From: a bacterium
Lineage (GTDB): Bacteria > UBA8248
DNA length: 64,000 nt
Direction: 5' to 3'
Assembly (NCBI GenBank): GCA_965261085.1
Contig: OZ253442.1
Coordinates: forward strand, 1,600,001-1,664,000
The notes under the pieces are model-generated. The model was not told where the DNA came from, made no database searches, and was given only the letters and a program-made list of their open reading frames with translations. This document shows, piece by piece, positions 19,196 through 48,200 of the stretch (position 1 is its first letter; every line of letters begins with the position of its first letter). The translations under genes and the position numbers were made by a program.

Positions 19196-19634
19196 AGACG
19201 CTTCCAAAATTACCGGGGAGAACACACAGGTTCTCCCCTATAGATCGTTTCCCACCAAGGAGGGCAATCCCCCCTCATCGCCTGCAATCCCTCCCCCTCA
19301 CCCAAAAGGCCGCGCCGCGCAGCCTGCGAATCCATGGAGGGTTCACGCCCGCATTTTCCTGGATATATCCGGGCGACAAACCAAAAGCGAGCCGCGAGGA
19401 TCAATTCCAACCGGGAAGGGGTTGTTGAATAACCCCCTCAAGGGAAAAATGCCTGCGGCGCATTCGCCGCCCTGGCGCGTAATACCTCCCTCGTCCCGAA
19501 CAAGTCCGTCGAACCGCGACGACACTCACCCCTCATCCCGAGTAGGCGCGCTTGCGCGCCGTATCGAGGGAGAGCCGGGGCGCATCGGGAGCGCGTCGAA
19601 GGGGAGCGCCCTTCGATACAAACGCTCCTTTTTC

Positions 19635-21156
19635 GGGGTTGTTGAATAACCCGGTTTCGGGAGCGGGCGGTATGGAGGGTCACGCGGCGGCGGACAGGAA
19701 GCCCACGCAGCTTGCGAGGCCGCGATGGACGCACAGAGGCTCTTCCCGGGCCGACCAGGCCCTCCAGAGGGCGAATAACCTTGCAGCAAGTGCGGCGGAG
19801 AGCCGCTTGAGGTTGATCGCCGCCGCCGTCAGGTAGGACTGTATCTTCATGTTCTCAAGACCGCGCCGCACCGCGCGCGCAAGCCCGTGCCAGGTCTTCG
19901 CCTCGCCGTGGTAGCCCTCCGAGCGCCACATATGACGCCGGTACATCCGCCGCTCCTCCTCCCTCCATCGCGCATGGCGCCGGCGCGCGCGCAACAGCGC
20001 CGGATACGCATGCGGAACCAACACCACCTTGCTCGACCACGCCTTCGGCAGGCAATCCTCGCGAAGCGCGCAGCCCGCGCAATCACGGGTCTTCGAACGA
20101 TAATAACGCCCCCCCTTTGCGGGCCGACGGGGGCTCAGTATCTTGCCGCGCGGACACTTCACGATGTCGTGCCGCGCGTCGTAGCGGAACAGGCGCAACG
20201 GAACACGGCTCTGCGAGGGTTCCCTCTTCGCCGGAATGAGCGCGGCCACACCCCGGCGCTCCAGGGCCGCGTAGACCTTCGAGTAGGCGTAGCCAGAGTC
20301 CGCCGTCACCATCGCGGGCGCGCGCCCCGATACCTCGCATACCGCTTCCACCTGCGATTCGAGCACCTCACGCTCGTTCACCGTACCCTCCGTCACCGAT
20401 ACGTCGAGCACCACCCCGCGCGTGTCGTCCACCACAGCGTGCTGCTTGTAGCTCGGCTCGAATCCCCCGCCCGTTCTCGCCAGCCGCGCGTCCGGGTCCG
20501 TCCGGCTCACCTTCCCGGAACCCCCGCCACGGCGGCCTCCTCCACCCTTCTTCCCGGCCTCCTCCTCGACGGGGTTCTCCGCTATCACCTCGTCCACGTG
20601 ACGCTCCACCAGACTCTCCCAACTCACGTCCGCGCGGATCAATGAGGCGTCCACGTGCACGACTTCGGCCTTGGCCACCTTCGCATCCAGGCACGCACGG
20701 ACCGTGCGGCGGAATATCTCCCGGAACCGGGCCTCCCCCCAGCGCTGCCGTATCCGCGTCAGGCTCGAATGATCCGGCAGCCGATCCTCCAGCCCGTAAC
20801 CGATGAACCACCGGATCGCGATGTTCACCTGCGCCTCGCGCATCAACCGACGGTCGTGCACGAACCCCAGCAGAAGGCCCGCCAACATCAACCGAACCGC
20901 CACTTCGGGGTCGATCCCAGGACGGCCGTTGTCCGCGCAATAACAATCCGCCACTTCCTCGCGCAGCCAACTCAGGTCCAGAACGCGGTTCACGCGGGCC
21001 AATATGTGATCCTCGGGAATCAACCTCTCCAGCGAACCGGTGATGAACAAATCCATCTGGGCGCGGTTCTTGCGTCCCAACATCGCGGATATTCCCTTCT
21101 CGGGCGCGTAATATCCATACATCCAAGCATAGAGTCAGGGGTTTTTCAACAACCCC
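19635..21156 (-). mobile_element. IS1182-family insertion sequence, copy 1 (1522 bp)
   Basis: Ends GGGGTTGTTGAATAA and TTTTTCAACAACCCC; 5-bp TSD TTTTC at 19630-19634 and 21157-21161. Confidence 0.93.
19680..21083 (-). CDS. IS1182-family DDE transposase
   Basis: GRPGIDP...PDHSSLTRIR N-terminal region, HVDAS, SRTDPDARL, ADSGY, CPxG...CxxCxxxxxC, EGYHGEAK; start chosen at MLGRKNR. Confidence 0.92.
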   Translation of the reverse strand: MLGRKNRAQMDLFITGSLERLIPEDHILARVNRVLDLSWLREEVADCYCADNGRPGIDPEVAVRLMLAGLLLGFVHDRRLMREAQVNIAIRWFIGYGLEDRLPDHSSLTRIRQRWGEARFREIFRRTVRACLDAKVAKAEVVHVDASLIRADVSWESLVERHVDEVIAENPVEEEAGKKGGGGRRGGGSGKVSRTDPDARLARTGGGFEPSYKQHAVVDDTRGVVLDVSVTEGTVNEREVLESQVEAVCEVSGRAPAMVTADSGYAYSKVYAALERRGVAALIPAKREPSQSRVPLRLFRYDARHDIVKCPRGKILSPRRPAKGGRYYRSKTRDCAGCALREDCLPKAWSSKVVLVPHAYPALLRARRRHARWREEERRMYRRHMWRSEGYHGEAKTWHGLARAVRRGLENMKIQSYLTAAAINLKRLSAALAARLFALWRAWSAREEPLCVHRGLASCVGFLSAAA

Positions 21157-21189
21157 TTTTCAGTCGCGTTTGACCTTCGGCGGCTACTC

Positions 21190-21266
21190 AGGGTGAGGTC
21201 GATACGGTGGCCATGAGGGTGAGGTCGATACGGTGGCCATGAGGGTGAGGTCGATACGGTGGCCAT
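21190..21266. repeat. Tandem repeat, 3 x 26 bp (AGGGTGAGGTCGATACGGTGGCCATG)
   Basis: Three contiguous copies with no spacers. Confidence 0.9.
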
Positions 21267-21768
21267 ACAAGACGAGGGGAGCGGGCGGTATGGCGGTTCA
21301 CGCGGAAGTTGTTCAGGCAGAGCTTTCGTTTGTCGAGAGGCGTGATGTTCGGTGGCCTCTTCCCCCCGAGACGCGCTCATGCGGGGCGCCGGAGGTGCGT
21401 TTGCTGTTCGAGCGCGAGCGGATGTCGCTGCCGCCCGCGGCGGAGCCCGGTTCGGTCGGCCTGGAGCTCGCACTGCGCCTGCCGGCGCTGCCCCACAGCG
21501 GAATCCATCCAAAATACACGATAACAACACGATATTTCCGCAAATATTCACACTAAGTTCACGAATTTTGTGCTTAAATGGGTTCATGGTTATTTGCAGC
21601 GCTTTGGAGAGCGACCTTGGGGCGGTTCCTGGGTTTGGGCGGTCCACGGGGAGTTTTTGGTGCGCGTGAGCGTTTTGGGGGATTTTCGGGATCCCTCTCT
21701 GAAGAGAACCGAGTTGTGTCCGCCGGGGCGCCCATTGCCCCGGATTCACTTTAGAGAGGAGACATGCC

Positions 21769-21924
21769 GTGCCTGACGATTATTCGGCCACGACGCAGAC
21801 CAGCGGCGCGGTTGCGGTGGGCGGCCCGGCGACGGGCGAGATCGAGACCGGGGGCGACCGCGACTGGTTCGCGGTGACCCTATTTCGGAAACAGCGAGTG
21901 AAACTTGCGGTGGCGTGTATCTGA
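21769..21924 (+). pseudogene. Truncated remnant of a PPC-like repeat protein (probable T1SS substrate)
   Basis: My translation from GTG (AGAGGAG upstream): MPDDYSATTQTSGAVAVGGPATGEIETGGDRDWFAVTL, then unrelated sequence and a stop at 51 aa. Confidence 0.6.
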
Positions 21925-21992
21925 AACCCACTCGATAGGGGATGAGAAATTCCTCCGAGTTGCGGAATCAGCCGGCGGGAGGTGATTTTCAG

Positions 21993-24212
21993 ATGGTTGC
22001 GAGGACGGGGGGCCGAGACGGCGAAAAGGAGATCCGGGCGGTTCTCTCGGAAAGCCGCTGGCTCTTGATTTCGTGCGGTTTTTTCAGTGTGGTGGTGAAC
22101 CTGTTGATGCTCACGGGTCCGCTGTTCATGCTGCAGGTCTACGACCGGGTGCTGGGCTCGCGTTCGATAGCGACCTTGGTGGCGCTGGTCGTCATCGTGG
22201 CGTTTCTGTTTTTGATAATGGGCGTACTCGACCACGCGCGCGGGAGGGTTCTCGCCCGCGTGGGCGCGCGGCTGCAGGCGCGGCTCGATTCGCGCGTGCT
22301 CAGGGCCATCCTCTCCCGCTCGGTCTCTCCCGCAGAACGCGCGCGCCCGGCGACGGGTCTTCGCGACTTGGAGGCGATCCAGCGTTTCGCCTCGGGTTCG
22401 GGGCCTTTCGGCTTCTTCGACGCGCCGTGGACGCCGGTGTTCCTGTTCGTGCTCTTCTCGTTCCACTGGATGCTCGGGTTGCTGGCGGTTTTCTCGGGTT
22501 GCCTGCTCGGCGGAATCGCCCTTCTTAATCAGGCGGGAACGTCGAGCATCCAGATGGAGGTCGGGCAGGCGAGCGCCAGTTCCGCCACCTTCATCGAGTA
22601 GATGCGCGCGGGCGGCGAAACCGTGCAGGGTCTCGGTATGCAGAACGCCATCGTGACGCGCTCGGCCAAATTGCGCGACATTGTGCTTGACAGGACGCTG
22701 GCGGCCTCGGACAGAAACGGCTTCTACAGCGTGCTCTCGAAAACGCTGCGCCTGTTCCTCCAGTCGATGATGCTCGGGCTCGGGGCCTTGCTCGTGATTT
22801 ATGGGGAACTGACGCCGGGCTTGATGATCGCGGGCTCGATCCTCCTGGGCCGGGCGCTCGCTCCCATCGATCAGGCGGTGGGCCACTGGCCGACGCTTCA
22901 GCGCGCGATTGCCGCGTGGCGCTCGCTCGCCGCCCTTCTGGACGATATACCGCCCGCCATCGACCGCACCAAGCTGCCCGCTCCACGCGCGATCCTCGAG
23001 GCGGAGGGCCTCATGGTCGCCGCCCCGGGAGCGAAGGTGGCGGCAGTGCGCGGCGCGTCGCTTCGTCTCGAGCCCGGACAGGCGGCGGGAATCGCGGGGC
23101 GCTCCGCCGCGGGCAAGTCCACTTTCGCGCGCGCGCTCGCCGGGGTGTGGCGGCCGATTGCGGGCTCGGTGCGACTCGACGGAGCGGAACTCGATCAATA
23201 CGGCGATGACATGGGGAAATACGTCGGCTATCTGCCCCAGGAGGTCATCCTGTTCGACGGGACCGTGGCGGAGAACATCGCCCGTTTCTCGCTCGAGGCG
23301 AAAGACGAGGACATCGTCGATGCCGCGAAGCGCACCGGGGCGCACGAGATGATACTCGAACTCCCGGGCGGGTACGATTTCCAGGTGTCCGCGGGCGGCG
23401 CCGCCCTCTCCGGCGGGCAGCGCCAGCGCATCGCGCTGGCCCGGGCGTTCTACGGCTCGCCCGTGGTGGTGGTGATGGACGAGCCCGACTCCAACCTCGA
23501 CGCCGAGGGCACCATGGCGCTCGCGAGCGCGGTGGAAGGTCAGAAAAAACGCGGCGGCACGGTGCTCATCGTGGCGCATCGCCACGGCGCGTTTGCGCAA
23601 TGCGACACGGTGTACGTGATGGAGAACGGACGTCCCGTCCCGGCGACGGGAGGGCAAGGCGGCGCGCAGCAAAGGGCCCAGGGTCGGGGCGCTCCCGAGG
23701 CAGCGGCCGGTCGTCAACCGCCGCGCAGCGGCGGGAGACGTGGCCAGGGAGGAGGACAGCCCGCGCGCCAGGCTCCGCCTGCGCCTGGGCGTGAAGGAAC
23801 TCCGGCGCGCGCCGCGTCTGGCGGGGGAGAAGATCCGAGTCCGCCCGCGCCCCCGGCGCGTGGGCGCGATGAGCAAATCGCCGGCGCCATCGAGCGAGTG
23901 AGGAGTTCGCCACCTCCCGGAACAGATGAGAATCAAACAGTAACTCCGCCTCCTGCGCCGCAGGGAAGTGCACAGGCGCGTCGGCCTGCGGGTGATGGGG
24001 GGCGAGCCGCTGCTCCCGCGTCTGCTGCTAGCGGACAAGCCTCTGAATCCAGGGGTGGCCGCGATGCGCAAATCGCCGCCGCCGTTGAGCGGGTGAGCGA
24101 TTCGGCTCCGGTTCCAGGCGCGAATGACAATGAAGAAACGGGCGCGCCCCCCGCGCCCGAGAGGGGTGAGGCCAGTTCCGGGAATCGCGCGAAACGAGGT
24201 GATGCGTCATGA
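21993..24212 (+). pseudogene. Type I secretion permease/ATPase (PrtD/AprD-like) interrupted by an in-frame TAG at 22599-22601
   Basis: ORFs 21942-22601 and 22602-24212 are in the same frame; MLQVYDRVL, FDAPWTP, GKST, LSGGQRQRIALARA, DEPDSNLD. Confidence 0.85.
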
Positions 24213-25645
24213 ACGAGAGACGATTTTCGGCCCGCAAGGCGCTCTACATGGGGTTCATGACGATGTTGGTGATGGGAGGCGGACTCCTCGGCTGGAGCGT
24301 TTTCGCCTCCCTCTCGGGCGCCGTGATCGCTTCCGGACGCCTCGGGGTCAAGAACCGCAACCAGGTGGTCGAACACATCGACGGCGGCACGGTGAGCCGG
24401 ATTTTCGTGCGAGACGGCGATTCCGTAAAGAAAAACGACGTACTGCTTCGCTTCGACGTCTCGCTTCTGCGCTCCGAGGAGGCGATCTTCGCGTCGGAAT
24501 ACGCCGAACTCGTGGCCCGGCGCAACCGCCTGGAGGCCGAACTCGAGGGTGCGGACACAATTGTGTGGGAGGAAGATATCGCCGCGCTCTCGGGGAGCGA
24601 CTTGCGGGTGCGGAGCATACTCGACGGTCATGAGAGGCTCTTCCGCGCGCGGTTGGCCTCGCGCAACGGCGAGGTGGCTCAGCTTCGCGAGCGTATCGGC
24701 CAGGCGCGCAAGGAAATTAATGGACTCGAAGCGCGGGCCGTCTCGCTTGTGGAGCAAAGAGAACTCATCTTCCGCCAGCTCAAGGCGTATCGCGAATTGT
24801 TCGACAAGGGGCTGACCTCGCTCGACAGGCTTCTCGCACTCGAGCGTGCGGCGAAAAACATCGAGGGCCTGGTGGGAACGAACGCCGCCTCCATCGCCGG
24901 GGCTTGGGGCCGCATCTCGGAGTTGGAGATTCAGATACTCCGGGTCGACGCGCGGCGGATCGAGGAGGCGGAGCAGTTGGTCCACGAGGCGAAGTCCCGG
25001 GAGAACCAGATTCACGAACGCCTCGCAATGGTGCGCGAGCGTCTCAGTCACATGGAGGTCCGCGCGCCGGTTTCAGGCAGGGTGTTCGGCATGAAGGTGG
25101 TCGCTCCGCGCGAGGTCGTGCGTCCGGGCGAGCCGATCCTCTACGTCGTGCCGGAGGATTCGGGCCTGGTGGTGATGGCGCGCCTCAATCCGATTCACGT
25201 GGATCAGGTATATATGGGACAGGAGGCGCGGCTTCGGTTTTCCTCCTTTCCCGCGCGCGTGACGCCGGAATTCCCCGGATATGTGATTCGCGTGTCGGCG
25301 GATGCGGTCACCGACCTGAACAGCGGCCTGTCGTGGTACGAAATCGATCTCGCCATGGGCAAGCCCGATTCGAACGGGACGGTCGCTCCGGCCGCGAAAA
25401 CAGACGATTCGCCCGGCTCGTTCATGGACTTTCTCCGCTGGTTGACGGGAACCGGGCCCGAGGAGCCCGGCGATTCGCTTGAAACGATGAAAGAGCAGCG
25501 GGGGTCGGACGCGTTGCTCCGTGAACTGGCCCTCACGCCCGGTATGCCGGTGGAGGTGCACATACAGACCGGGGAACGCTCGCTGATAAGTTATCTCGCC
25601 AAGCCGCTCACGGACTTTTACAGCCGGTCCATGAGAGAGGAATAG
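24209..25645 (+). CDS. HlyD-family type I secretion periplasmic adaptor (PrtE-like)
   Basis: N-terminal TM, VVEHIDGG, coiled coil, VRAPVSG, LTPGMPVEVHIQTGERS. Confidence 0.92.
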   Translation: MNERRFSARKALYMGFMTMLVMGGGLLGWSVFASLSGAVIASGRLGVKNRNQVVEHIDGGTVSRIFVRDGDSVKKNDVLLRFDVSLLRSEEAIFASEYAELVARRNRLEAELEGADTIVWEEDIAALSGSDLRVRSILDGHERLFRARLASRNGEVAQLRERIGQARKEINGLEARAVSLVEQRELIFRQLKAYRELFDKGLTSLDRLLALERAAKNIEGLVGTNAASIAGAWGRISELEIQILRVDARRIEEAEQLVHEAKSRENQIHERLAMVRERLSHMEVRAPVSGRVFGMKVVAPREVVRPGEPILYVVPEDSGLVVMARLNPIHVDQVYMGQEARLRFSSFPARVTPEFPGYVIRVSADAVTDLNSGLSWYEIDLAMGKPDSNGTVAPAAKTDDSPGSFMDFLRWLTGTGPEEPGDSLETMKEQRGSDALLRELALTPGMPVEVHIQTGERSLISYLAKPLTDFYSRSMREE

Positions 25646-25677
25646 GCTGCGCGCCTCTTTCGCGGGGAGAAGACATC

Positions 25678-26145
25678 TTGGAAGAAGATACCCTTGAAAT
25701 CTCGCTCGTCAACGATCTGAGGGAAATAGCCGGAGTCGCCACGCAGATCGATGAATTCTGCGCGGAGAGGAACTACGCTCCGCAAATCGGTTATTCGGTC
25801 AATCTCTCAATCGAGGAGATCCTCACCAACAGGATCAGCTTCGGGTATGAGGATGACGAACCCCACCGCATCGAGGTCATCCTGCGCGTGGAGGGAAAAG
25901 AACTCGTCGTCGTGTTTGTGGATAACAGCGCGCCGTTCGATCTCTCCTCCGTGGCGGAAACCGATATCGGGGGCGAGGCTCTTGAAGACGACCCTTTGGC
26001 CGGACTGGGCCTTTTCCTCGTGAATCAGATGATGGACAGCGTCGAGTATCGGCGGGAGAGCGGATGCAACGTCCTCATCATGACGAAGGAGACGCATGAG
26101 GCCCTCGAGGCGGAAGCGGACGTCGTGCCGGACCCGGAATCCTGA
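25678..26145 (+). CDS. RsbW-like anti-sigma factor / HATPase_c protein
   Basis: EEILTN N-box, DNSAPFD, GLGLFLVNQMMDSVEY. Confidence 0.8.
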   Translation: MEEDTLEISLVNDLREIAGVATQIDEFCAERNYAPQIGYSVNLSIEEILTNRISFGYEDDEPHRIEVILRVEGKELVVVFVDNSAPFDLSSVAETDIGGEALEDDPLAGLGLFLVNQMMDSVEYRRESGCNVLIMTKETHEALEAEADVVPDPES

Positions 26146-26229
26146 CCCCGGAAGCGCATTCGCCTGTCACGCGCAAATTCCGCCGGAAAAATTTCCTCCC
26201 GTTTTTTGACTTTTGCTCGTGTCAATCAC

Positions 26230-28080
26230 TCAAAAGACGATCCGCAAAGCGAGCGAGAGGCGGTGGCTCCGGCGCGAGTCTTCCCCGAAGCGTCCGGAGT
26301 AGCCCACGAGGCCGCTCGCGCGCTCGCCGAGTTTCGCGCTCACGCCTAAGTCGGCGCTCACGGTGCTGCTCGAAGGGGTGAAGCCCGGGATGCTGAATCG
26401 CCCCGGCATGGTGTTCGAACCCGCCGATACGAGAATGGGGTCATCCTCGAGTTCGTGCTCATAGGCGATGCGGGCGTAGGGGCGGAGCCCGCCGATGCTC
26501 CAGGCGAAGCGATAGCCGCCGCGCGCGATGAGGGAGTTGCGCGAGAAGTCCGAGAAATTCATCGCGGTCGAGGAGTTTCCACTCTCCCGAAAGCCCTTGA
26601 CCTCCTGGTTGAGCAGCGAGAGACCGAAAAACGGCCCATGCCGCAGGCTCTCGGAGGCGCCCAATGTCCACCCCAAATCGAATTCGCCCCCGAACTGGGC
26701 GGCTTCGGTGGAGCCGCGCTCGGTGCGCGTGAACGCTCCGAGGGTGACCGGGCGCTCGACGTCCACAGAGGTCTGCCCCAGGGTAAGGGAGACGCTCACT
26801 TCGAGGCCGCCGCTGCGCCACGCGCCGTGCAGCGAGCCGAGCGCCACGTCGCTGTCCAGGTTCGCGCCCGAGAGTTCGTTCTCGTGGCGGGCGATGCTCA
26901 GCGCGGCGCCCCAGGAGAGGTCCGGCCCGGCGCGGTGGCCGGCGCCCAGGGTGATGACCGTCATGTCGGATTCGATATCCCCGAGACGCGCGAAAGCGCC
27001 CAAATCGCTCCCGCCGAACTGACCCCTCGCATAGCCGCGCCAACTCCCGACGGGCAGCGCGAAGTCGGCGGCCCGCTCCGCAGAAATGACGCCGTCGTGA
27101 GCCACCGCCGCCTCGGCGCCCGCCTCCCCTGCGAGCGAAACCTGCAGCGGAGCCGCGAGCGTGGAGGTCACCAGGCTTGCGAGCATCGCGTGGACGGCGC
27201 CGCTCGGGTGGCTGCGATCCGCGAACAGATAGGTATTGTTGGTATCGGGCGCATAGGTTACGGGAAAAGGAGAACCCGCAGGCCCGCATTGGATGGAGAG
27301 TGCGCTTCCCGCGTTCGGCGCCCCGCAGGCCGTCCCGGTGACGTTGGTAAGGCCGTATCTCCCGGGGTTTGCGGCGAGGGCGGTGAGCGCAACATTGATG
27401 TTGATGGGGACGACGCCCTCCTCATTCTCGCGAATGCCGGCGTAGAGTTTCTTGTTGTATTCGGTGACGAGCGCGGAGAGTCCCGCCTGGGCGGCGGGCC
27501 CCTGGGCGGCGGCGAAAGGCGCCAGAGAGGCGTCGGGCATGTTGAACACCACGACGTGGCGGGCGCCTGCTTCGCGGAGGCGGCGTATCTGCGCGGCGTT
27601 CACGTCCGCGGCCGCGAGAACGTGGCCCAGCGCGTTGAGCGGATCGCCTAGCGCGGAATCGGCGATGTCGTTCAGGCCGCCCCAGATGGTGTAGAGCGCA
27701 TTCGGGTCGAGGCGTCCGCCCCGCAAGGAAAGGTGTTGGCCTATCTGCTCCGTCACCGTCGGCACGTCGTCGAAGTCACAGGGCGTCGCCGGGTTCATGC
27801 ACGCCCCGCCGAAGGCGTAGTTCGGCCCGCGGGAGAGGGAGTTTTGCCCCGATGCGCCGAAGGCCCCTGCGATAATCTCGGCCCAGACGGGGTCGGGATT
27901 CGTGGTGAAGCTGGTGCCCGGGGGCAGCGGCAGTCCCGATGCCGCGGCCGCATTGCCGGAATCGCTCAGGCTGTCGCCGAACACGACGACGTTGCTGAAG
28001 CTCTGCGCCGAGGCGTTTCCGGCGAATCCCAGGGAGAGAATGAGAACAAGGACGCCGATAAGGCGAAGATGATGCGGCAT
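26230..28080 (-). CDS. Autotransporter with GDSL/SGNH esterase passenger (EstA-like)
   Basis: Signal peptide, FGDSLSDSGN, NYAFGGA, FADRSHP, C-terminal beta-barrel ending in Phe. Confidence 0.9.
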   Translation of the reverse strand: MPHHLRLIGVLVLILSLGFAGNASAQSFSNVVVFGDSLSDSGNAAAASGLPLPPGTSFTTNPDPVWAEIIAGAFGASGQNSLSRGPNYAFGGACMNPATPCDFDDVPTVTEQIGQHLSLRGGRLDPNALYTIWGGLNDIADSALGDPLNALGHVLAAADVNAAQIRRLREAGARHVVVFNMPDASLAPFAAAQGPAAQAGLSALVTEYNKKLYAGIRENEEGVVPININVALTALAANPGRYGLTNVTGTACGAPNAGSALSIQCGPAGSPFPVTYAPDTNNTYLFADRSHPSGAVHAMLASLVTSTLAAPLQVSLAGEAGAEAAVAHDGVISAERAADFALPVGSWRGYARGQFGGSDLGAFARLGDIESDMTVITLGAGHRAGPDLSWGAALSIARHENELSGANLDSDVALGSLHGAWRSGGLEVSVSLTLGQTSVDVERPVTLGAFTRTERGSTEAAQFGGEFDLGWTLGASESLRHGPFFGLSLLNQEVKGFRESGNSSTAMNFSDFSRNSLIARGGYRFAWSIGGLRPYARIAYEHELEDDPILVSAGSNTMPGRFSIPGFTPSSSTVSADLGVSAKLGERASGLVGYSGRFGEDSRRSHRLSLALRIVF

Positions 28081-28332
28081 GTGAGCGACTCCTTTTTTTC
28101 GGAAGAGAACGAGTGTGGATATCGCGATATGATTCGCGTGTCGCATGAGAGCAACATAGCAAATTCGCGCCTTCGGAGGCAATGAAAAACCCGCGGCTCA
28201 CGGGTGTTTCTGCTCCGGGGGAGCTTTGTCCTGAAGCGTTTACGCGCGTTTGGGCCGGGGGGAATGAAACCGCCGCGAATAGTGGTATAATGCCGTCTCT
28301 ACTCTGACTACGTCTGAAAAATGGAGCGCGGC

Positions 28333-28596
28333 ATGGCGGATGGATTGTCCGGGTTCAGGGAGCGGATTGATGCGTGCGATGCGGAGATCATCCGCCTGCT
28401 CAACGCTCGGCTCAAAATCTGCCTCGAAGTCGGCGAATACAAGAGCGGACGGGGAATCGCCGTCAAGGACGAAGCCCGCGAGAGCGAAGTCATCGCCAAG
28501 GTTCTGGACGGCAACGAGGGTCCATGCCCGCCCGAGGACCTCGAGCGGATTTACCGCATTCTGATCGACACCGCCGTCCGCCTCGAGGAGGAATGA
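28333..28596 (+). CDS. Chorismate mutase (AroQ, type II)
   Basis: RERIDACD...LLNAR, VGEYK, DEARESEV; TGGTATAAT extended -10 upstream. Confidence 0.8.
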   Translation: MADGLSGFRERIDACDAEIIRLLNARLKICLEVGEYKSGRGIAVKDEARESEVIAKVLDGNEGPCPPEDLERIYRILIDTAVRLEEE

Positions 28597-28910
28597 TTTC
28601 ATACGGGCGGAGCGGAGCGAGGTGCTCAATCGTTTTTGCCGAGCCGTCACCGCCCCACGCAAAGTAGCTTGATACGGGCGGAGAAAAACGAGCGCCTGGC
28701 GCGTTTTCGCCGAGGGGAGCCGCGCGAGGGTGAGAATGGTTTCATGGGGACATCGGAGCGGTTCGCCGTATCCTCAGGAGAGCCGCTTGGAGAGCCCCGA
28801 TCCCGCCGGGAAGCATTTTTGAGCAAATACTGATACAATAAGTTACAAGTCGCTGGAACTTCCGCTACTCGCCCGAACCTTGAAATCATCGCCCCAGGGA
28901 GAATTCCCGC

Positions 28911-35900: not shown

Positions 35901-35976
35901 GGGGCTGTAGCTCAGCTGGGAGAGCGCATGACTGGCAGTCATGAGGTCAGGGGTTCGATCCCCCTCAGCTCCACCA
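35901..35976 (+). tRNA. tRNA-Ala (GGC)
   Basis: GGGGCTGTAGCTCAG..., anticodon arm CATGA-CTGGCAG-TCATG, GGTTCGATCCC, 3' CCA. Confidence 0.97.
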
Positions 35977-37604: not shown

Positions 37605-38035
37605 TTTTGAAATCCTTAAATGGTGGAAGATAGATAAGAGCGGGGGCAGACTACGAATTATGAGAAAAGGAGTCAAGAATAAAGAAAGAATTGCTGGAAG
37701 ACGTATGCCGACTTGTAAAGAACTTGAGCAGAAGTGAAAACTTGAAAAGAAGTAAGTTTCTTGCGGATTTAAGTATATAATTCCCTATTTTATCGATATT
37801 TTCAGAAATTCCCGCTTGTGCGACCCTGAGTCTCCGGCCGGTCGCCGTCGCGCCACACGCAGGGGTCCGCGCGTTCCTCGCCGGGTGAGGCGAAACTCCG
37901 CCGATTGGTCTTTCGTAGGCCCGCGTTTTTGCGGGGAAACGCTAAAAGTGTTACTAATGTAATCCAACCTGACATTCTTGTTTGCCCCTTGATGAGGGCA
38001 TCTTTCCTTTGATGACGAGATAGGGATTCGATTCG

Positions 38036-40189: not shown

Positions 40190-40344
40190 GGCGAGCGTCC
40201 GCTCATGACAGGCGGATGAAATCGCCCGATAAGTAAGAATCGATACCCATGCGCTCGTGATGCGCTGGTAATTTTGTGTGAGACGCTTTTGGGTGCGTCT
40301 GGCGTTTGTTTGTGAAAACGCCTCACCAAGGGGACGGAATTTCC

Positions 40345-42216
40345 ATGAAGCGGTTCCTGAACCCGGTCGCCATGCTGGCTATCGTCTGGTCGGTCATCCA
40401 GCTCTACTGGGCCTTTTTCGGGATGTTGCACGTCTTTACCTCCAGGCCGCTTCATCTGAGCTTCGCGCTGGGCATCGTCTTTCTCACAAAACCGTTTCGC
40501 AAGGAAGGCCGCGTCGGCGCCGTCGATTACGTCCTGACCGTCATCGCCATGTGTATCGCGCTGCTCTATCTGTTTGAGTGGAATTTCCTGAACGAACGCA
40601 TCCGCGACGTGGATTACGTTCCCGTGCGCTATATCTACTTAGGGTTAGCCTACATCCTCCTGACCGTAGAGGCCTCGCGGCGTTATCTCGGCTGGGGCGT
40701 CACCTCGGTCGCCGTCGTGGCGCTGGCTTATAATTTCCTGGGTCATTTTATTCCTGGCCCCCTGGGGCACCGCTTCATCGAGTTGCCCGAGTTTATCGAG
40801 TTCCAGATCCTGGGCATCGAGGGCCTGCTGGGCGTTCCGCTGGGCGTGAGCGTGGAGGTGGTGTTCTATTTCGTGCTCTTCTCGGCTGCGCTAGAGGTTT
40901 CGGGCGGCGGACGCATGTTCATCGACCTGGCCATCCGGCTCACCGGTTCGTTCCGGGGCGGTCCGGCCAAGGCGGCTATCGTGAGCAGCAGCCTCATGGG
41001 AACCATCAGCGGCAGCGCGACGGCGAACGTCGTGGGAACCGGCATCTTCACCATCCCGCTGATGAAGCGCTTGGGCTTCGCCCCCCATTACGCCGGCGCG
41101 GTGGAAGCGGTGGCCTCAACGGGCGGGCAGCTCATGCCGCCCATCATGGGAGCGGGAGCTTTCATTCTGGCCGACATGACGGGAACCCCCTACCTGCGGG
41201 TGGCGGGCGCTGCGGCCATTCCGGCCGTCATCTACTACGTCTCGCTGTTCTTCATGGTCGATCTCGAGGCGAAAAAGCTGAATCTCAAGGGATTGAGCAA
41301 AGACGAGATGCCCGTACTCAAGAGCATCATCCTGGAGCGCGGTCTTCTGCTCCTGCCGATCATCCTGCTCTTGGGCTACATGGTCGCCGGTTTTACGCTG
41401 ATGTGGTCGGCCACCTCGGCGGCCATCGGCGTGGTGGTGCTCAGCTGGGTGCGCAGGTCGACGCGTATGGGGCCCGAGAAGATAATCGAAGCGCTCGAGA
41501 AGGCCGGGCGCATGACGGTCCCCGTCGCCGTTCCCTGCGCGATCGCGGGCGTCGTGGTCGGCGTGGTGGACGATACGGGCCTCGGACTCAAATTCTCCGG
41601 CCTCATCGTGAACATTTCGGGCGGCATGATTCTGCCCGCGCTGGTGCTGACGCTCATCGGCTGCGTCATCATGGGCATGGGGATGCCCACGGCCGCCGCC
41701 TACATCATGGCGGGCACGCTTCTGGGGCCCGCGCTCGCTAAGCTCGGGCTTCCCGTTCTGGCGGCGCATATGTTCATCTACTATTTCGCCATACTCTCGA
41801 TGCTGACGCCGCCGGTGGCGCTATCGGCCTACGTCGCCTCGGGCGTGGCCAATTCGGACCTGACCGCTACGGGCTGGAAGGCGTTTCAGCTCTCTTTGGC
41901 GGGATTTCTCATTCCCTTCGCGTTCGTATATAATCCTGCCATGCTGTTCATCGGTCCGCTCGGTGAGACGCTCTGGGTATCGATCACCTGCATCATCGGT
42001 GTGGCGGCCCTGGCGGCGGCGATCACCGGGCACATATCGATCCCCCTGGTGGCTTGGGAGCGGGCGGTTTTCTTTATCTGTTGCCTGGGGCTGATCGTTC
42101 CCGAGAAGTTGACGGACGTCATCGGCTTCGTTTTGGTGGTCATTGTTTTCTGGCGCCATCTGGCGCGCGCCAAGAAAAGCGCCCTCGCTGTAGAATCGGC
42201 GGGTCCGGTCTCTTAG
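40345..42216 (+). CDS. TRAP transporter fused 4TM/12TM permease
   Basis: GGPAK, SGSATANV, ASTGGQLMPPIMGAGAF, GMGMPT, TPPVAL. Confidence 0.93.
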   Translation: MKRFLNPVAMLAIVWSVIQLYWAFFGMLHVFTSRPLHLSFALGIVFLTKPFRKEGRVGAVDYVLTVIAMCIALLYLFEWNFLNERIRDVDYVPVRYIYLGLAYILLTVEASRRYLGWGVTSVAVVALAYNFLGHFIPGPLGHRFIELPEFIEFQILGIEGLLGVPLGVSVEVVFYFVLFSAALEVSGGGRMFIDLAIRLTGSFRGGPAKAAIVSSSLMGTISGSATANVVGTGIFTIPLMKRLGFAPHYAGAVEAVASTGGQLMPPIMGAGAFILADMTGTPYLRVAGAAAIPAVIYYVSLFFMVDLEAKKLNLKGLSKDEMPVLKSIILERGLLLLPIILLLGYMVAGFTLMWSATSAAIGVVVLSWVRRSTRMGPEKIIEALEKAGRMTVPVAVPCAIAGVVVGVVDDTGLGLKFSGLIVNISGGMILPALVLTLIGCVIMGMGMPTAAAYIMAGTLLGPALAKLGLPVLAAHMFIYYFAILSMLTPPVALSAYVASGVANSDLTATGWKAFQLSLAGFLIPFAFVYNPAMLFIGPLGETLWVSITCIIGVAALAAAITGHISIPLVAWERAVFFICCLGLIVPEKLTDVIGFVLVVIVFWRHLARAKKSALAVESAGPVS

Positions 42217-42274
42217 CGAAAAACGCATTATAGGCGGAACAATTCGTGTTATTTCCAACAGAGGAGTTTTCGAC

Positions 42275-43252
42275 ATGAAGCGCACATCCTGGAAAATGGG
42301 TTTCGTTCTCGCGGTGGCCATCGGGGTTTTCCTGGCCGTTCAGGCCGAGGCGGCCGGCCGCCTCACGATGGGCAGTTGGAAAAAAGGCAGCGGCTGGCAC
42401 GTATACTCGGCCACCATGGCGAACATCGTGAACAACGCGAAAGTGGGCGTTCAGATAGACGCCCTCTCCAAAGGCGGCGGCGTGGGCAACCCCAAGCTCG
42501 TCGGCACCGGCAAGTTCAACATGGGGCTTACTTTCAGCGTGGCGGCGGCTTGGGCGTATCAGGGCAAGGTGGCCTACGAGAAGCCCTACACGAACCTGCG
42601 GGGGCTGATCGGCGGCCTGGACCAATACTACCTGGGCATCGTCACCACGAACCCCAAGGTGAACGGCATCCTGGACTTGAAGAAAGTGCCCGTGAACTAC
42701 GTGACGGTTCCGCGCGGAGGGCTGGGCCAGTGGGCCACGCGCGCCATGCTCGGAGCGCACGGCATCACCTATGAGGGCATCAAGAAGATGGGCGGGTCGG
42801 CCACGCACACCGGCTTCGGCGCGATCAAGAGCCGAATGAAGGACGGTCAGGCCGACATGCTGAGCCACACCGTGAACGCGGGCCACCCGGCGCTCACTTC
42901 GATCGCGATCCAGAAGAAGCTGAAATTTTTAGGAGTAGCCGATGAGTTCCGCAACAAGCTTCTGGGCATCGGTTTCCTGAAAGCCACCATGCCGGCCAAT
43001 ACGTTCCCGGGGCAGAAGAAGCCCAAGAACACGTTCGGCTTCACCACCGCGGTCCTCGCCTCCACCGCCCTGAGCAACGACGATGCGTACAAGATCGTGA
43101 AGGCGCTGCTCGACAACGTGAAAGACCTGCGGGCGGGGCATAAGGGCCTCAGGGGCTTCGACCCGGCGAAAACCGGCTGCAAGGAATCGCAAATGGGCAT
43201 ACCGTTTCACGCCGGCGCGGCCCGCTACTGCAAGGAGAAGGGCTGGAATTAG
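42275..43252 (+). CDS. TAXI-family TRAP solute-binding protein
   Basis: Signal peptide, GGGVGN, MPANTFPGQ, IPFHAGAARY. Confidence 0.88.
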   Translation: MKRTSWKMGFVLAVAIGVFLAVQAEAAGRLTMGSWKKGSGWHVYSATMANIVNNAKVGVQIDALSKGGGVGNPKLVGTGKFNMGLTFSVAAAWAYQGKVAYEKPYTNLRGLIGGLDQYYLGIVTTNPKVNGILDLKKVPVNYVTVPRGGLGQWATRAMLGAHGITYEGIKKMGGSATHTGFGAIKSRMKDGQADMLSHTVNAGHPALTSIAIQKKLKFLGVADEFRNKLLGIGFLKATMPANTFPGQKKPKNTFGFTTAVLASTALSNDDAYKIVKALLDNVKDLRAGHKGLRGFDPAKTGCKESQMGIPFHAGAARYCKEKGWN

Positions 43253-43414
43253 TTGATGATTCAAGCGGCGGAAAGAGGATTTTCGTCGGGTGAAGTAACA
43301 AGCAAGAAATAGAATCGAAACTGGTTGATGAAGGTTTCACTCCCGCCGTTCGTCTTTGATGGTCGGCGGGAGCCTTCTATTTCAGAATCTGTTTGCTCCA
43401 ACAGGGGGAATGCC

Positions 43415-44206
43415 ATGCCGTACCGCTTCGTCGATCTCACGCTCACCGTCGACCCGGAGGACACCTACGTTCAGTTTCCGCGCGATGAGATTTACGACAA
43501 ACCGGCTCCGGGCACGACCATCACCCCCATTGCGACGCTGGACGTGGACCACATCTGCAACTTCGGCTTCACCACGACCACGCAGAGCTACACGCACTAC
43601 GACGCGCCCTATCACTTTTTTCACGACGGGCTGAAGAACGACGAGCTGCCGCTCGATCACGTATGCGGCGACGCCTGCGTGCTCAAGGTGCCGGGCAAGG
43701 GCAATTCCGAGACCGTAACGGCTGCGGATTTGGAAGCCACGGGGGTGGAAGTGCGCCCCGGCGACATCGCCATCGTGAGCACGGAATGGACCGACCGCAT
43801 GTGGGGATCGCGCGATTTCTGGGAGCACATGGTCTATCTCTCGACCGACGCGGCAGATTGGCTCATCGGGAAGGGAATCAAGGCGCTCGTTCAGGATTTC
43901 ATGACGTGCGACTCGCCGCTTTATCCTCCCGGGGAGCGCAAATGGCCCGCCCCGAACTGGAGTCCCAACCACATCAAGTTCCTGGAGCGCGGCATATGCC
44001 TCATCGAGTGGTGCACGAACATGGGCGCCATCCAGAAAGAGCGCGTCCTGCTCGTGACGGGCGCGGTGAAGCTCAAGGACACCGAAGGCGCGCCCGCGCG
44101 CGTCATCGCCATTGAATTCTGGGATGAGGAACCGCCCCGCGATGGCGCTCCCCCACTGCCGCCCCTCGAGAATCCTTATACGGATCGCGGCTCCTGGGCC
44201 AAATAA
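43415..44206 (+). CDS. Cyclase family (kynurenine formamidase-like) metallohydrolase
   Basis: VDLT, QSYTHYDAPYH, IEW, EGAPARVIA. Confidence 0.85.
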   Translation: MPYRFVDLTLTVDPEDTYVQFPRDEIYDKPAPGTTITPIATLDVDHICNFGFTTTTQSYTHYDAPYHFFHDGLKNDELPLDHVCGDACVLKVPGKGNSETVTAADLEATGVEVRPGDIAIVSTEWTDRMWGSRDFWEHMVYLSTDAADWLIGKGIKALVQDFMTCDSPLYPPGERKWPAPNWSPNHIKFLERGICLIEWCTNMGAIQKERVLLVTGAVKLKDTEGAPARVIAIEFWDEEPPRDGAPPLPPLENPYTDRGSWAK

Positions 44207-44217
44207 AGAGGCGCAAT

Positions 44218-45600
44218 ATGGTCGACCAAAGCCTGCGCGGCTTCCTGGAGATGGTGGAGAAGAACCACCCCGAAGAACTGGTGCGCATCAAGGAGCCCGT
44301 CGGCAGGGAGGACATCACGGCGGCGGTATTCGAATTCGAGCGCGCGGGCAGATACCCCGTCATCATCTTCGAGCGCGTGGAGGGTTTCGAGGGTTCGGTC
44401 GTCACCAACATCGCGGCCAACCGGGATCTCCTGGCGGCGTGTCTCGACGTGGAGCCGGGCGAATTGCCCACGGCGTACAAGGATCGCTGCCAGAATTACC
44501 GGCCCGTGGAGGTGGTGGAGGACGCTCCCTGGCAAGAAATCGTACTGGAAGAAGACGAGGTGGACCTGAACAAACTGCCCATTCCCTTCCATTTTCCCGT
44601 GGATGCGGCCCCCTACATCACGGCGGGGCAAATCGTGGCGCGAGACCCCGAAACAGGCGTGGACACGACGGGCTTTCACCGCTTACAGCTCAAGGGAAGA
44701 AACAGGCTTGGGCTTTCCCTGCACTCGAGACGGCGCATGTACCATTTCCACAAAAAGGCCGAAGACGCGGGCGAGGCCCTGCCCGCGGCGGTCGTCATCG
44801 GGGTTCACCCGGTTCACTACATGGGTTCGATGGCCTATCACTACCCGCCGGGGGTGCGGAAGTACGAGATTATCGGCGCCTTGTTCGGCGAGCCGTATCG
44901 CGTCGCCAGATGCGGCACGGCGGACTTGGAAGCGCCTGAGGGGGCGGAAATCGTTCTGGAAGGGGAGATTCTGGCCGAGGTGCGCGAACCCGAAGGTCCT
45001 TTCGGCGAGTTCACGGGCTATGCGTCCTACCGCAGCACGCAGAACGTATTCGTCGTGAAGCGCGTACAGATGCGGGGCGACGCGATGCTCCACAGCGTGG
45101 CCTCGGGCATGTCGGCGGATCATATACTCATCTCCTGCGTCAGCCGTGAGGCGGAAATCTTGAACACGCTCAGGCGCAACCTGCCGGGGGTATCGGCCGT
45201 GCACGTTCCCTCGAATACGGCGGGCGCGCTGCTGGCGATCGTGCAGATGAAAAAAACGGCCGAGGGCCAGCCGCAACAAGCCATCATGGCGGCGCTCGGC
45301 ACCGAGTTTTATTGCAAATGCGTGGTGGTCGTCGATGAGGACGTGGACATCTTCAATCTCTCGGACGTCGCCTGGGCGGTCATCACGAGAACGCGGGCGG
45401 ATAAGGACATCAACTTCATCCACGGGGCGATGGGCGCCATTCTGGACCCGACCTCTGACCCCGTGGACCACACCCTCACGAAAATGGGCATCGACGCCAC
45501 CAAGCCCGCCGGGCGTGATTTTGCGGAACGACTCTATATACCCGACGCGCAGCGAGAGCGTGTGCGCGGGATCCTCGCAAGCGCGGGCATTCACCTCTAG
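44218..45600 (+). CDS. UbiD family (de)carboxylase
   Basis: DAAPYIT, FHRLQ, EIVLEG, EGPFGEFTGY, VVDEDVD, KMGIDATKP. Confidence 0.93.
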   Translation: MVDQSLRGFLEMVEKNHPEELVRIKEPVGREDITAAVFEFERAGRYPVIIFERVEGFEGSVVTNIAANRDLLAACLDVEPGELPTAYKDRCQNYRPVEVVEDAPWQEIVLEEDEVDLNKLPIPFHFPVDAAPYITAGQIVARDPETGVDTTGFHRLQLKGRNRLGLSLHSRRRMYHFHKKAEDAGEALPAAVVIGVHPVHYMGSMAYHYPPGVRKYEIIGALFGEPYRVARCGTADLEAPEGAEIVLEGEILAEVREPEGPFGEFTGYASYRSTQNVFVVKRVQMRGDAMLHSVASGMSADHILISCVSREAEILNTLRRNLPGVSAVHVPSNTAGALLAIVQMKKTAEGQPQQAIMAALGTEFYCKCVVVVDEDVDIFNLSDVAWAVITRTRADKDINFIHGAMGAILDPTSDPVDHTLTKMGIDATKPAGRDFAERLYIPDAQRERVRGILASAGIHL

Positions 45601-45608
45601 TTTTTCGA

Positions 45609-46571
45609 ATGAGCGAGAGAAAAGTAAAACTCGGCGTGCTTCTTCCCACGCGCGGGGTGTTGCTCTGGAACGAGGGTGCGCCGGAGGTGGGCCCCATCAT
45701 CGACTTGGCCGTGCGCGCGGAGGAACTCGGCTACGATTCGGTGTTCGTGGGTGATTCGGTCCTCGCCAAGCCGAGGCTCGAGGCGCTCAGCGTGCTCTCC
45801 GCCGTCGCCGTGAAGACGAAGCGCGTAAAGCTCGGCACCGCCGTCTTTCTGCCCTGCCTCAGGGACCCCGTTTTTCTCGCCTATCAGGTGGCGACGCTCG
45901 ACGTCATCTCGGGCGGCCGCGTGGTTCTCGGCGTCGGCATCGGCCCGCCGAAGCCCCAGGAATGCGAACACGAGTTCGAGACTCTGGGCGTTCCGTTCCG
46001 AAAGCGCATGTTCTACATGCAGGAACACATGACGCTCATGCGAAGGCTCTGGACGGAGGAGAACGTGACCTTCGAGGGCAGGTATTATCAGGTCGAAAAC
46101 GTGACGCTGGCGCACAAGCCCATCCAGAAAACCGTGCCCATGTGGATCGCCTCAGCCACAGTGGACACCGCATGGCGGCGTGTGGCGAAGTATGGGGATG
46201 GCTGGTTCCCCAACCGCGTGACGCCCGAGGAGTTCCGCGAAACCTGGGGTAAAATCGTCGGGCTCGCCGAGGAGAATAAGCGCGATCCCGGCACGCCCGC
46301 GTGGTACATGACCACCTGCATCGACGATGATAAGGAATCGGCCATGAAAAACGGCGAGGCGTTCCTGCTCGATTATTACTACACCCCCTTTTGGGGTGAT
46401 TCCATCGAGAAATGGGGAACGTACGGCCCCGCCGAAGACCTGATAGAGCGCATTAACGCCTTTATCGAAGCGGGAGCCGAGCACATCTCCTTGCGCTTCA
46501 CGCACCGGGATCAGATGGGCCAACTGGAGCGATTCACCCAAGAGGTGCTGCCGCACCTGAATTTGGAGTAA
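45609..46571 (+). CDS. LLM class oxidoreductase
   Basis: LLPTRG, DSVFVGDS, ATLDVISGGR; paralog of 38036-39004. Confidence 0.9.
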   Translation: MSERKVKLGVLLPTRGVLLWNEGAPEVGPIIDLAVRAEELGYDSVFVGDSVLAKPRLEALSVLSAVAVKTKRVKLGTAVFLPCLRDPVFLAYQVATLDVISGGRVVLGVGIGPPKPQECEHEFETLGVPFRKRMFYMQEHMTLMRRLWTEENVTFEGRYYQVENVTLAHKPIQKTVPMWIASATVDTAWRRVAKYGDGWFPNRVTPEEFRETWGKIVGLAEENKRDPGTPAWYMTTCIDDDKESAMKNGEAFLLDYYYTPFWGDSIEKWGTYGPAEDLIERINAFIEAGAEHISLRFTHRDQMGQLERFTQEVLPHLNLE

Positions 46572-46640
46572 CGTGGTTTCTCTCCGACCCCGCCGTCCAT
46601 CCCCAAAGAAAGAACAGGTGCAGTCAAACTCGAGTGAAGA

Positions 46641-48162
46641 GGGGTTGTTGAAAAACCCCTGACTCTATGCTTGGATGTATGGATATTACGCGCCCGAGAA
46701 GGGAATATCCGCGATGTTGGGACGCAAGAACCGCGCCCAGATGGATTTGTTCATCACCGGTTCGCTGGAGAGGTTGATTCCCGAGGATCACATATTGGCC
46801 CGCGTGAACCGCGTTCTGGACCTGAGTTGGCTGCGCGAGGAAGTGGCGGATTGTTATTGCGCGGACAACGGCCGTCCTGGGATCGACCCCGAAGTGGCGG
46901 TTCGGTTGATGTTGGCGGGCCTTCTGCTGGGGTTCGTGCACGACCGTCGGTTGATGCGCGAGGCGCAGGTGAACATCGCGATCCGGTGGTTCATCGGTTA
47001 CGGGCTGGAGGATCGGCTGCCGGATCATTCGAGCCTGACGCGGATACGGCAGCGCTGGGGGGAGGCCCGGTTCCGGGAGATATTCCGCCGCACGGTCCGT
47101 GCGTGCCTGGATGCGAAGGTGGCCAAGGCCGAAGTCGTGCACGTGGACGCCTCATTGATCCGCGCGGACGTGAGTTGGGAGAGTCTGGTGGAGCGTCACG
47201 TGGACGAGGTGATAGCGGAGAACCCCGTCGAGGAGGAGGCCGGGAAGAAGGGTGGAGGAGGCCGCCGTGGCGGGGGTTCCGGGAAGGTGAGCCGGACGGA
47301 CCCGGACGCGCGGCTGGCGAGAACGGGCGGGGGATTCGAGCCGAGCTACAAGCAGCACGCTGTGGTGGACGACACGCGCGGGGTGGTGCTCGACGTATCG
47401 GTGACGGAGGGTACGGTGAACGAGCGTGAGGTGCTCGAATCGCAGGTGGAAGCGGTATGCGAGGTATCGGGGCGCGCGCCCGCGATGGTGACGGCGGACT
47501 CTGGCTACGCCTACTCGAAGGTCTACGCGGCCCTGGAGCGCCGGGGTGTGGCCGCGCTCATTCCGGCGAAGAGGGAACCCTCGCAGAGCCGTGTTCCGTT
47601 GCGCCTGTTCCGCTACGACGCGCGGCACGACATCGTGAAGTGTCCGCGCGGCAAGATACTGAGCCCCCGTCGGCCCGCAAAGGGGGGGCGTTATTATCGT
47701 TCGAAGACCCGTGATTGCGCGGGCTGCGCGCTTCGCGAGGATTGCCTGCCGAAGGCGTGGTCGAGCAAGGTGGTGTTGGTTCCGCATGCGTATCCGGCGC
47801 TGTTGCGCGCGCGCCGGCGCCATGCGCGATGGAGGGAGGAGGAGCGGCGGATGTACCGGCGTCATATGTGGCGCTCGGAGGGCTACCACGGCGAGGCGAA
47901 GACCTGGCACGGGCTTGCGCGCGCGGTGCGGCGCGGTCTTGAGAACATGAAGATACAGTCCTACCTGACGGCGGCGGCGATCAACCTCAAGCGGCTCTCC
48001 GCCGCACTTGCTGCAAGGTTATTCGCCCTCTGGAGGGCCTGGTCGGCCCGGGAAGAGCCTCTGTGCGTCCATCGCGGCCTCGCAAGCTGCGTGGGCTTCC
48101 TGTCCGCCGCCGCGTGACCCTCCATACCGCCCGCTCCCGAAACCGGGTTATTCAACAACCCC
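46641..48162 (+). mobile_element. IS1182-family insertion sequence, copy 2 (1522 bp)
   Basis: Same length and same translated ORFs as copy 1; TSD GAAGA at 46636-46640 and 48163-48167. Confidence 0.93.
46714..48117 (+). CDS. IS1182-family DDE transposase
   Basis: Protein identical to 19680-21083. Confidence 0.92.
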   Translation: MLGRKNRAQMDLFITGSLERLIPEDHILARVNRVLDLSWLREEVADCYCADNGRPGIDPEVAVRLMLAGLLLGFVHDRRLMREAQVNIAIRWFIGYGLEDRLPDHSSLTRIRQRWGEARFREIFRRTVRACLDAKVAKAEVVHVDASLIRADVSWESLVERHVDEVIAENPVEEEAGKKGGGGRRGGGSGKVSRTDPDARLARTGGGFEPSYKQHAVVDDTRGVVLDVSVTEGTVNEREVLESQVEAVCEVSGRAPAMVTADSGYAYSKVYAALERRGVAALIPAKREPSQSRVPLRLFRYDARHDIVKCPRGKILSPRRPAKGGRYYRSKTRDCAGCALREDCLPKAWSSKVVLVPHAYPALLRARRRHARWREEERRMYRRHMWRSEGYHGEAKTWHGLARAVRRGLENMKIQSYLTAAAINLKRLSAALAARLFALWRAWSAREEPLCVHRGLASCVGFLSAAA

Positions 48163-48200
48163 GAAGAACGAGGGTTTGCCAACCAACGAGGCGGTTATAA

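Follow-up and report, generated by a model that had tools for sequence, protein, structure and literature searches.

Insertions of an IS1182-family element lie at the tips of REP-like hairpins in either orientation

Introduction

How does a transposable element come to occupy the same kind of long, imperfectly palindromic site more than once in a genome? The question is raised by a 64,000-nucleotide stretch of bacterial DNA (GTDB lineage UBA8248; assembly GCA_965261085.1, contig OZ253442.1, positions 1,600,001–1,664,000), referred to here as the window, which holds two inverted copies of a 1,522-bp insertion sequence (IS) of the IS1182 family, each with a perfect 5-bp target-site duplication (TSD). 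An initial annotation of the window proposed that this element recognizes a 27-bp target with defined sequence and orientation. Some IS1182-family members are known to target palindromes (Siguier 2015, cited for this in passages of PMC5678879 and PMC4923244), and passages of the same two papers describe IS1272/TnSha1, of this family, as using hairpin targets without duplication and with loss of the stem-loop. Repetitive extragenic palindromic (REP) sequences are targets of members of the IS3, IS110, IS4, IS256 and IS5 families, as set out in passages of PMC1525189. The genome containing the window is a single contig of 4.27 Mb that is 96% complete, and the junctions of the element were read throughout it. 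We conclude with good confidence that the transposase targets the tip of a REP-like hairpin through its CAA/TTG outer stem, in either orientation, and that the choice is set by the element.

Results

Two window copies interrupt closely similar sites

The features on which the comparison rests, including a MITE (miniature inverted-repeat transposable element) with IS-like ends, are the following.

19635–21156, minus strand: IS copy 1, 1,522 bp; transposase open reading frame (ORF) at 19680–21122 on the minus strand
19630–19634 and 21157–21161: TSD of copy 1, TTTTC (GAAAA in the transposase orientation), junctions read directly
19619–19629 and 21162–21172: halves of the hairpin split by copy 1, CAAACGCTCCT (plus strand) and AGTCGCGTTTG
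46641–48162, plus strand: IS copy 2, 1,522 bp; transposase ORF at 46675–48117, 480 aa
46625–46640, plus strand: left side of the copy-2 hairpin, arm CAAACTCGAGT followed by TSD GAAGA (46636–46640)
48163–48178, plus strand: right side of the copy-2 hairpin, TSD GAAGA (48163–48167) followed by arm ACGAGGGTTTG
8242–8558: MITE of 317 bp with IS-like inverted repeats; TSD GATGA at 8237–8241 and 8559–8563
19418–19435, plus strand: solo inverted repeat of the IS type, the end of an older MITE-like element

The IS is bounded by an 18-bp terminal inverted repeat, GGGGTTGTTGAAWAACCC, which has 10 matches in the window against 0.06 expected. Removal of the IS and one TSD rebuilds, in transposase orientation, CAAACGCGACT-GAAAA-AGGAGCGTTTG for copy 1 and CAAACTCGAGT-GAAGA-ACGAGGGTTTG for copy 2. 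These 27-mers are identical at 22/27 positions by hand count and the TSD is exactly central, so that reading of the junctions bears out what had been reported for the pair. The window MITE, which sits inside the hairpin CAATCCTGACC-GATGA-GGGAGGGATTG, fits the same pattern, again as annotated.

Copy 1 is a nested insertion, since it entered a hairpin internal to the older MITE-like element whose end is the solo inverted repeat. Beside copy 1 and inside this older element, a 26-bp unit (GGTGAGGTCGATACGGTGGCCATGAG) is repeated about three times in tandem at 21187–21265. A composite transposon made up of the two inverted window copies was considered and rejected; the copies have separate TSDs, and the 5-mers on the outer sides differ (TTTTC and GAAGA).

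Insertions across the genome are in register with a hairpin loop

BLAST located 21 full-length IS copies in the genome, of which one is 99.1% identical and the other 20 are 99.9% or more, together with diverged or partial copies; several MITE families derived from the element are also present. We take the element to be an insertion sequence of the IS1182 family that was active recently, with a DDE (Asp-Asp-Glu) transposase. Perfect 5-bp TSDs flank 17 of the 21 copies and 16 of these 17 lie in a hairpin. In three of the four copies lacking a matched TSD, the half-sites on the two sides come from two different hairpins, which is the expected result of recombination between IS copies.

We carried out the genome-wide collection of insertions that the initial annotation had suggested as a check, counting pairs of inverted repeats with a perfect 5-bp TSD (n=40; 17 IS and 23 MITEs). 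Thirty-three of these 40 insertions, whether IS or MITE, are in exact register within one hairpin family, the TSD being the loop. A script assigned 26 on full criteria and 6 on partial criteria; the insertion at genome position 2013560, with a 7/7 CAATCCC stem, was added by eye. Such a register is far beyond chance. Location relative to genes was checked at two of the 33 hairpin sites, those of the window IS copies. Both lie between genes, in agreement, for these two copies, with the intergenic target that had been claimed.

Insertion had also been described as orientation-specific, and this is not borne out. Among the 16 full-length, TSD-intact copies in hairpins, the purine-rich strand of the loop is in the transposase sense in 9 and in the opposite sense in 7 (binomial p=0.80), a ratio that becomes 7:7 if three copies whose flanks are identical count as a single one. 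The shared orientation of the two window copies is chance. The suggested use of the element as an integration tool is overstated, there being no control of orientation and dozens of sites in the native genome.

The target is a REP-like repeat with covarying stems

The target usually has the layout (GGT)-7-bp stem-GA-nn-GARRA-nn-GA-stem′. Read as a hairpin, this is a stem of 7 covarying pairs followed by a tandem G.A/A.G step, two further pairs and a loop of 5 nt. A strict structural definition identified 74 sites in the 4.27 Mb and none in the reversed genome used as the control, and a relaxed definition 172 (4 in its control). Scanning for the 13-nt core alone, loop included, gave 456 sites against 129 in the reversed genome; 105 of the 456 have at least 6/7 stem pairs (at most 12 in the control) and 73 are perfect. 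When the 3′ arm is shifted by 1–3 bases at most 1 perfect stem is left, and the 105 hairpins have 46 distinct stems. Hence, the stems covary around a fixed core. The evidence for the hairpin is this covariation and not folding energy: three empty hairpins folded as single-stranded DNA had modest stabilities of −6.5, −3.9 and −3.8 kcal/mol, with z-scores of −2.4, −2.4 and −1.2.

Repeats of this kind are mostly intergenic, often clustered or in inverted pairs, and hairpin cores are also found in the ends of other short repeats. The window contains several empty examples.

48222–48248, plus strand: empty hairpin CAATCCC GATT GAAGA ATGA GGGATTG
15634–15660, 48294–48320, 48444–48470 (minus strand): further empty hairpins

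Tandem arrays in which the core GAnnGARRAnnGA alternates with stem halves are present as well (for example at genome position 1291771). Their period is about 24 nt, and they can form nested long hairpins.

A search of the 96% complete genome for the Y1 transposase of REP-associated tyrosine transposases (RAYT; PF01797) gave 0 matches, the control being positive in 6 of 14 reference genomes. Scanning of the window with Rfam at gathering thresholds returned no family for the hairpin, its sole match being a tRNA at 35901–35973. Because there is neither a RAYT gene nor an Rfam family, we describe the repeat as REP-like without assigning it to the REP/RAYT systems. No replication-linked pattern was found on the two replichores, with strand counts of 42:38 and 14:11 for hairpins and of 10:5 and 5:1 for IS copies.

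Filled and empty hairpins differ in their stems. CAA...TTG stems are present in 29/33 filled hairpins compared with 50/105 empty ones (Fisher p=3.6e-5), and for IS copies alone in 16/16 (p=4.7e-5). Stems of the GAATTCC, CAGCCCC and CATTTCC types, which are common among empty sites (at least 23/105), are never occupied. The genome has in addition 93 palindromes of the form ACTCCCC-N5-9-GGGGAGT (0 in the control); 0/21 IS copies are located in one, and three MITEs are. The stem preference and the unused hairpins and palindromes together mean that structure alone does not explain target choice. The earlier claim of sequence-specific, oriented choice thus survives in part: the CAAWC/GWTTG ends do matter, as the enrichment of CAA stems indicates, and orientation does not.

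The transposase belongs to the IS1182 family and carries a Cys4 segment

The window transposase scores 356.1 bits against NF033551, the IS1182 family model (cut-off 270), and the IS5, IS4 and IS982 models all fall below their own cut-offs. Its Pfam matches are DUF772, DDE_Tnp_1_6 and DDE_Tnp_1. IS1182 elements are about 1.3–2 kb long with a single transposase ORF between short terminal inverted repeats, and the architecture found here (1,522 bp, 18-bp inverted repeats, one 480-aa ORF) fits the family.

Across 8 aligned relatives, residues D158, D275 and E402/E407 do not vary; they are candidates for the DDE catalytic triad, a role suggested by their conservation. Between the second D and the E lies a Cys4 segment, C323...C348-x2-C351-x5-C357, the four cysteines of which are invariant in the 8 sequences. 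The Cys-rich segment is where the window protein diverges most from the group of relatives that insert into C/G palindromes (see below), this group being itself 83–90% identical there. On the strength of this pattern we propose, with low confidence, that the Cys4 segment may be the determinant of target specificity.

Relatives of the element use other targets

We compared 22 congeneric genomes. The exact element was found only in the genome of the window; relatives are present in 17/22 congeners and are 78–82% identical where full-length. The preferred 27-mer (up to 1 mismatch) is present in 18/22 congeners, with 39–91 copies in seven IS-examined genomes (control 0); such sites number 25–91 across congeneric genomes. 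IS junctions were read at 15 loci from eight congeners. Fourteen of the 15 lie in C-run/G-run palindromes, either ACTCCCC-CTCAA/TTGAG-GGGGAGT or TACCCCCCC-TTGTC-AGGGGGGTA, in both orientations, and the GA hairpin is occupied at 0/15. Since relatives in congeners that hold the hairpin use another palindrome, target choice is a property of the element, most probably of its transposase protein.

From public genomes we sampled 80 relatives, 70 with recognizable ends and 42 with a perfect 5-bp TSD. The 70 are distributed among C-run/G-run palindromes (27), a motif of IS256-family transposase genes (12), an integrase-like motif (5) and sites elsewhere (26); GA hairpins account for 0/70. The IS256-family transposase gene is a firm target, used by alphaproteobacterial relatives. 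In the relative L053, the match to the Pfam Transposase_mut profile breaks off in the left flank at position 254 and is taken up again there in the right flank; this split recurs in L049 and, in the opposite orientation, in L055. The ATGAT-type target is a probable tyrosine-recombinase motif: its translated right flank (...LLGHNQVETTARYAHL) matches Pfam Phage_integrase at E=0.018, below the cut-off, and its left flank has no match.

Two further observations concern the reuse of sites. A 79%-identical IS copy at genome positions 2401735–2403102 is located in a recombinase-like coding motif, ...GESLPM|IGKLLGH..., which also holds relatives L015, L027, L039 and L070 of other genomes. Two lineages (L035–L038, and L050, L051 and L065) each reuse one conserved site, ...GCCGCAACCGTGCACGCCTTCCAG... 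and ...CGGAACCTCGGAGGAACCCCTTCATTCCG..., in both orientations.

Target class goes with transposase phylogeny: on a quick tree there are 6 label changes, compared with 25.3 in shuffles. As kin and near-copies share labels, this statistic overstates independence and the effect is inflated.

Alternative explanations and a proposed mechanism

Could the IS have been duplicated along with a larger element that includes the shared flanks, so that these are not target DNA? Three IS copies do have identical 40-bp flanks and the same TSD, and copy 1 lies within a MITE-like repeat present elsewhere in the genome. However, that repeat has uninterrupted paralogues (genome positions 2896955 and 3019576) in which just one 5-mer stands at the corresponding place between the same flanks. 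At the position orthologous to that of copy 2, the congeners G008 and G004 lack an IS and have a diverged, uninterrupted hairpin; it lies downstream of a shared luciferase-like monooxygenase gene, which is 94% and 90% identical in the two. Moreover, nearly identical IS copies have flanks that differ at at least 5/27 positions and TSDs that vary, insertions occur in both orientations, and there are 41 intact sites in this genome and as many as 91 in congeners. Co-duplication, which the initial annotation had named as the finding that would undo its claim, is contradicted by these empty sites and is very improbable; the long pseudo-palindromic target of about 27 bp is target DNA. Random insertion followed by selection for copies in harmless intergenic repeats would accord with the intergenic position of the two window copies and with a host genome crowded with repeats. 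Selection does not reach to a single-base register, though, loops being a minute share of non-coding DNA, and the IS copies, 20/21 of them at least 99.9% identical and the other 99.1%, are too young for much purging. We regard this as the most improbable of the accounts considered.

A transposase that seeks any extruded hairpin or cruciform and reads no sequence, as proposed for IS1272/TnSha1, has a precedent within the family in hairpin targets without primary-sequence consensus (passages of PMC4923244 and PMC5678879). The coincidence of TSD and loop in 33/40 insertions, and the use of stems of several sequences, point the same way. Against it stand the enrichment of CAA...TTG stems among filled sites, the equivalent hairpins with other stems that are never occupied, the 93 other palindromes passed over by every IS copy, and the relatives that enter a fixed point of an IS256-family coding motif, which is not a symmetric hairpin. 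Targeting by structure alone is consequently unlikely, if the least remote of these alternatives. Targets that are long, lineage-specific and changed between close relatives could also be set by base pairing with a nucleic acid encoded by the element, in the manner of the IS110 bridge RNA or the IS608 guides. Across 12 elements (13 rows, the window IS being compared with both sites), however, the longest exact matches of an element to its own target were 7–10 nt, no longer than the 7–12 nt found with foreign targets. A guide nucleic acid was rejected on these grounds and has a very small probability; guides are not known from DDE transposases of the IS5/IS1182 type.

We therefore retain targeting of the hairpin tip through the outer stem, for which the following steps are proposed. 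The transposase would capture the REP-like hairpin and cut it exactly around the tip, the 5-bp duplication indicating that the cuts are staggered by 5 bp as in ordinary DDE chemistry. The 5-nt loop becomes the TSD and the stem arms come to lie on either side of the element. Chiefly the outer, two-fold symmetric stem (CAAWCSC/GSGWTTG) would be read and the asymmetric loop ignored, which would permit entry in either orientation. The occurrence of both orientations and the outer-stem preference suggest that both arms are read by a two-fold symmetric transposase assembly; this assembly may read duplex DNA, with the Cys4 segment as the putative carrier of specificity.

Several points weigh against targeting of this kind. 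Seven of the 40 TSD-bearing insertions are outside the GA hairpin, namely one IS (genome position 15735) and six MITEs, three of which sit in the ACTCCCC palindrome, and a further full-length copy, 788676, lies outside any such hairpin and lacks a clean TSD. Because of these insertions, the target specificity is strong but not absolute. Copies 1069706, 1619635 and 3287388 share 40-bp flanks and the same TSD, since they are located in copies of one MITE-like repeat, so that not all insertions are independent; mobilization of the MITEs by this transposase is assumed. The stem preference could partly mirror which larger repeats carry which stems, and the data fit recognition of duplex DNA and of an extruded cruciform alike. 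A structure model built from the 8-sequence alignment was unusable (mean predicted local distance difference test score (pLDDT) 43.5, predicted template modelling score (pTM) 0.25) and did not place the Cys4 segment.

A wider reading, which we put forward tentatively and think rather doubtful, is that this IS1182 branch is a natural series of retargeted DDE enzymes of high sequence specificity, each locked on its own 25–35-bp target, with the switch in the Cys4 loop. Every examined lineage of the series would make a 5-bp TSD and the identified targets would all be multicopy or 'selfish' DNA. They would comprise the GA hairpin in this genome; the C-run/G-run palindrome in congeners that have 74–80% protein identity and dozens of GA hairpins; the WQRCR|VHFMRN-coding motif of IS256-family transposase genes in rhizobia and other alphaproteobacteria; and the probable tyrosine-recombinase motif. 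The retargeting switch would map to a variable loop of the Cys4 zinc-ribbon-like insert in the catalytic domain. If this were true, swapping the loop would redirect integration and a DDE specificity code would be readable from it. The small clade offers a convenient natural set for studying how a DDE transposase reads a long target.

Neighbouring repeats and genes

A MITE-like element of about 300 bp lies next to copy 2, at 48197–48495, and has 55-nt terminal inverted repeats (ACCACTCCCCCCTTGAGGGTCAAT...). It has a GA hairpin at each end directly after a ACTCCCCCCTTGAGGG motif, which occurs 133 times in the genome. This adjacency places the target types of both IS lineages side by side in one repeat. 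Another family of palindromic repeats (GTCATTCCGGCGAATGCCGGAATCC...), which has no relation to the IS target, is present at 7985–8010, 8060–8121 and 8453–8514 and, in congeners, also adjoins the orthologous sites.

A pair of inverted repeats (about 550 bp, 90–97% identical) at 11637–12187 and 15008–15510 brackets three genes.

12196–13257, minus strand: glycosyltransferase of family GT4
13335–13667, minus strand: pterin-4a-carbinolamine dehydratase
13768–14970, minus strand: luciferase-like monooxygenase

The block is flanked by restriction-modification-type genes, Eco57I-like at 8728–11595 and Type ISP-like at 15650–19195, and may be an inserted or invertible segment.

Discussion

Comparison with known systems

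The novelty of the target is lower than the initial annotation claimed, as targeting of palindromes and hairpins is on record for the IS1182 family and targeting of REP sequences for other families. Its claim as stated accordingly matters little: the targeting habit was already known and the tool-like orientation was wrong. Searches of the open literature turned up no description of an IS1182 element that inserts into REP-like hairpins with a TSD the size of the loop, nor of one that targets IS256-family genes, which is not proof of absence.

IS1272/TnSha1 of staphylococci resembles the present element in family, in the use of hairpin or inverted-repeat targets and in insertion in either orientation (passages of PMC4923244 and PMC5678879), and Fig. 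13 of PMC5678879 sketches a 'loop only duplicated' outcome, the one seen here. As those passages describe it, the cut made by IS1272 falls in the stem or at its foot, the stem-loop is lost, no TSD arises and the targets lack a consensus in sequence. The element described here, in contrast, cuts around the tip, generates a 5-bp TSD, keeps both arms and prefers CAA...TTG stems. Transposition that replaces the stem-loop, as in IS1272, is not what its copies display, 17/21 having a perfect TSD with both stem arms kept.

The REP-targeting elements compared were IS1397 and ISKpn1 (IS3), IS621, ISPpu9, ISPpu10 and ISPa11 (IS110) and ISRm22 (IS4). They share with the present element an abundant intergenic palindromic repeat as the target, which is rebuilt by joining the flanks (passages of PMC1525189). 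Unlike it, they have transposases of other families, and IS1182 is named 0 times in that paper. The repeat targeted here also differs from theirs in having no RAYT partner.

Like REP and REPIN sequences associated with RAYTs, this repeat is a short, abundant, mostly intergenic hairpin, and its copy number (74, 105 or 172, depending on the definition) is in keeping with the figure of about 100 or more copies used as a criterion for such families. It differs in the lack of a Y1 transposase, in the 46 stems found among 105 copies and in the conserved GA-nn-GARRA-nn-GA core. A 5′ tetranucleotide of the GTAG type is usual in REP elements, whereas the repeat here has GGT. With 46 perfectly paired stems around that fixed core and no RAYT, it constitutes an unclassified repeat family of the genus.

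Two features go slightly beyond the textbook account of these systems. The rule is unusually clean, the loop being the TSD in 33/40 insertions, and combines structure with a readable stem preference. In addition, relatives in sister genomes that are offered both kinds of site use different ones, and distant relatives insert at one codon position of IS256-family transposase genes.

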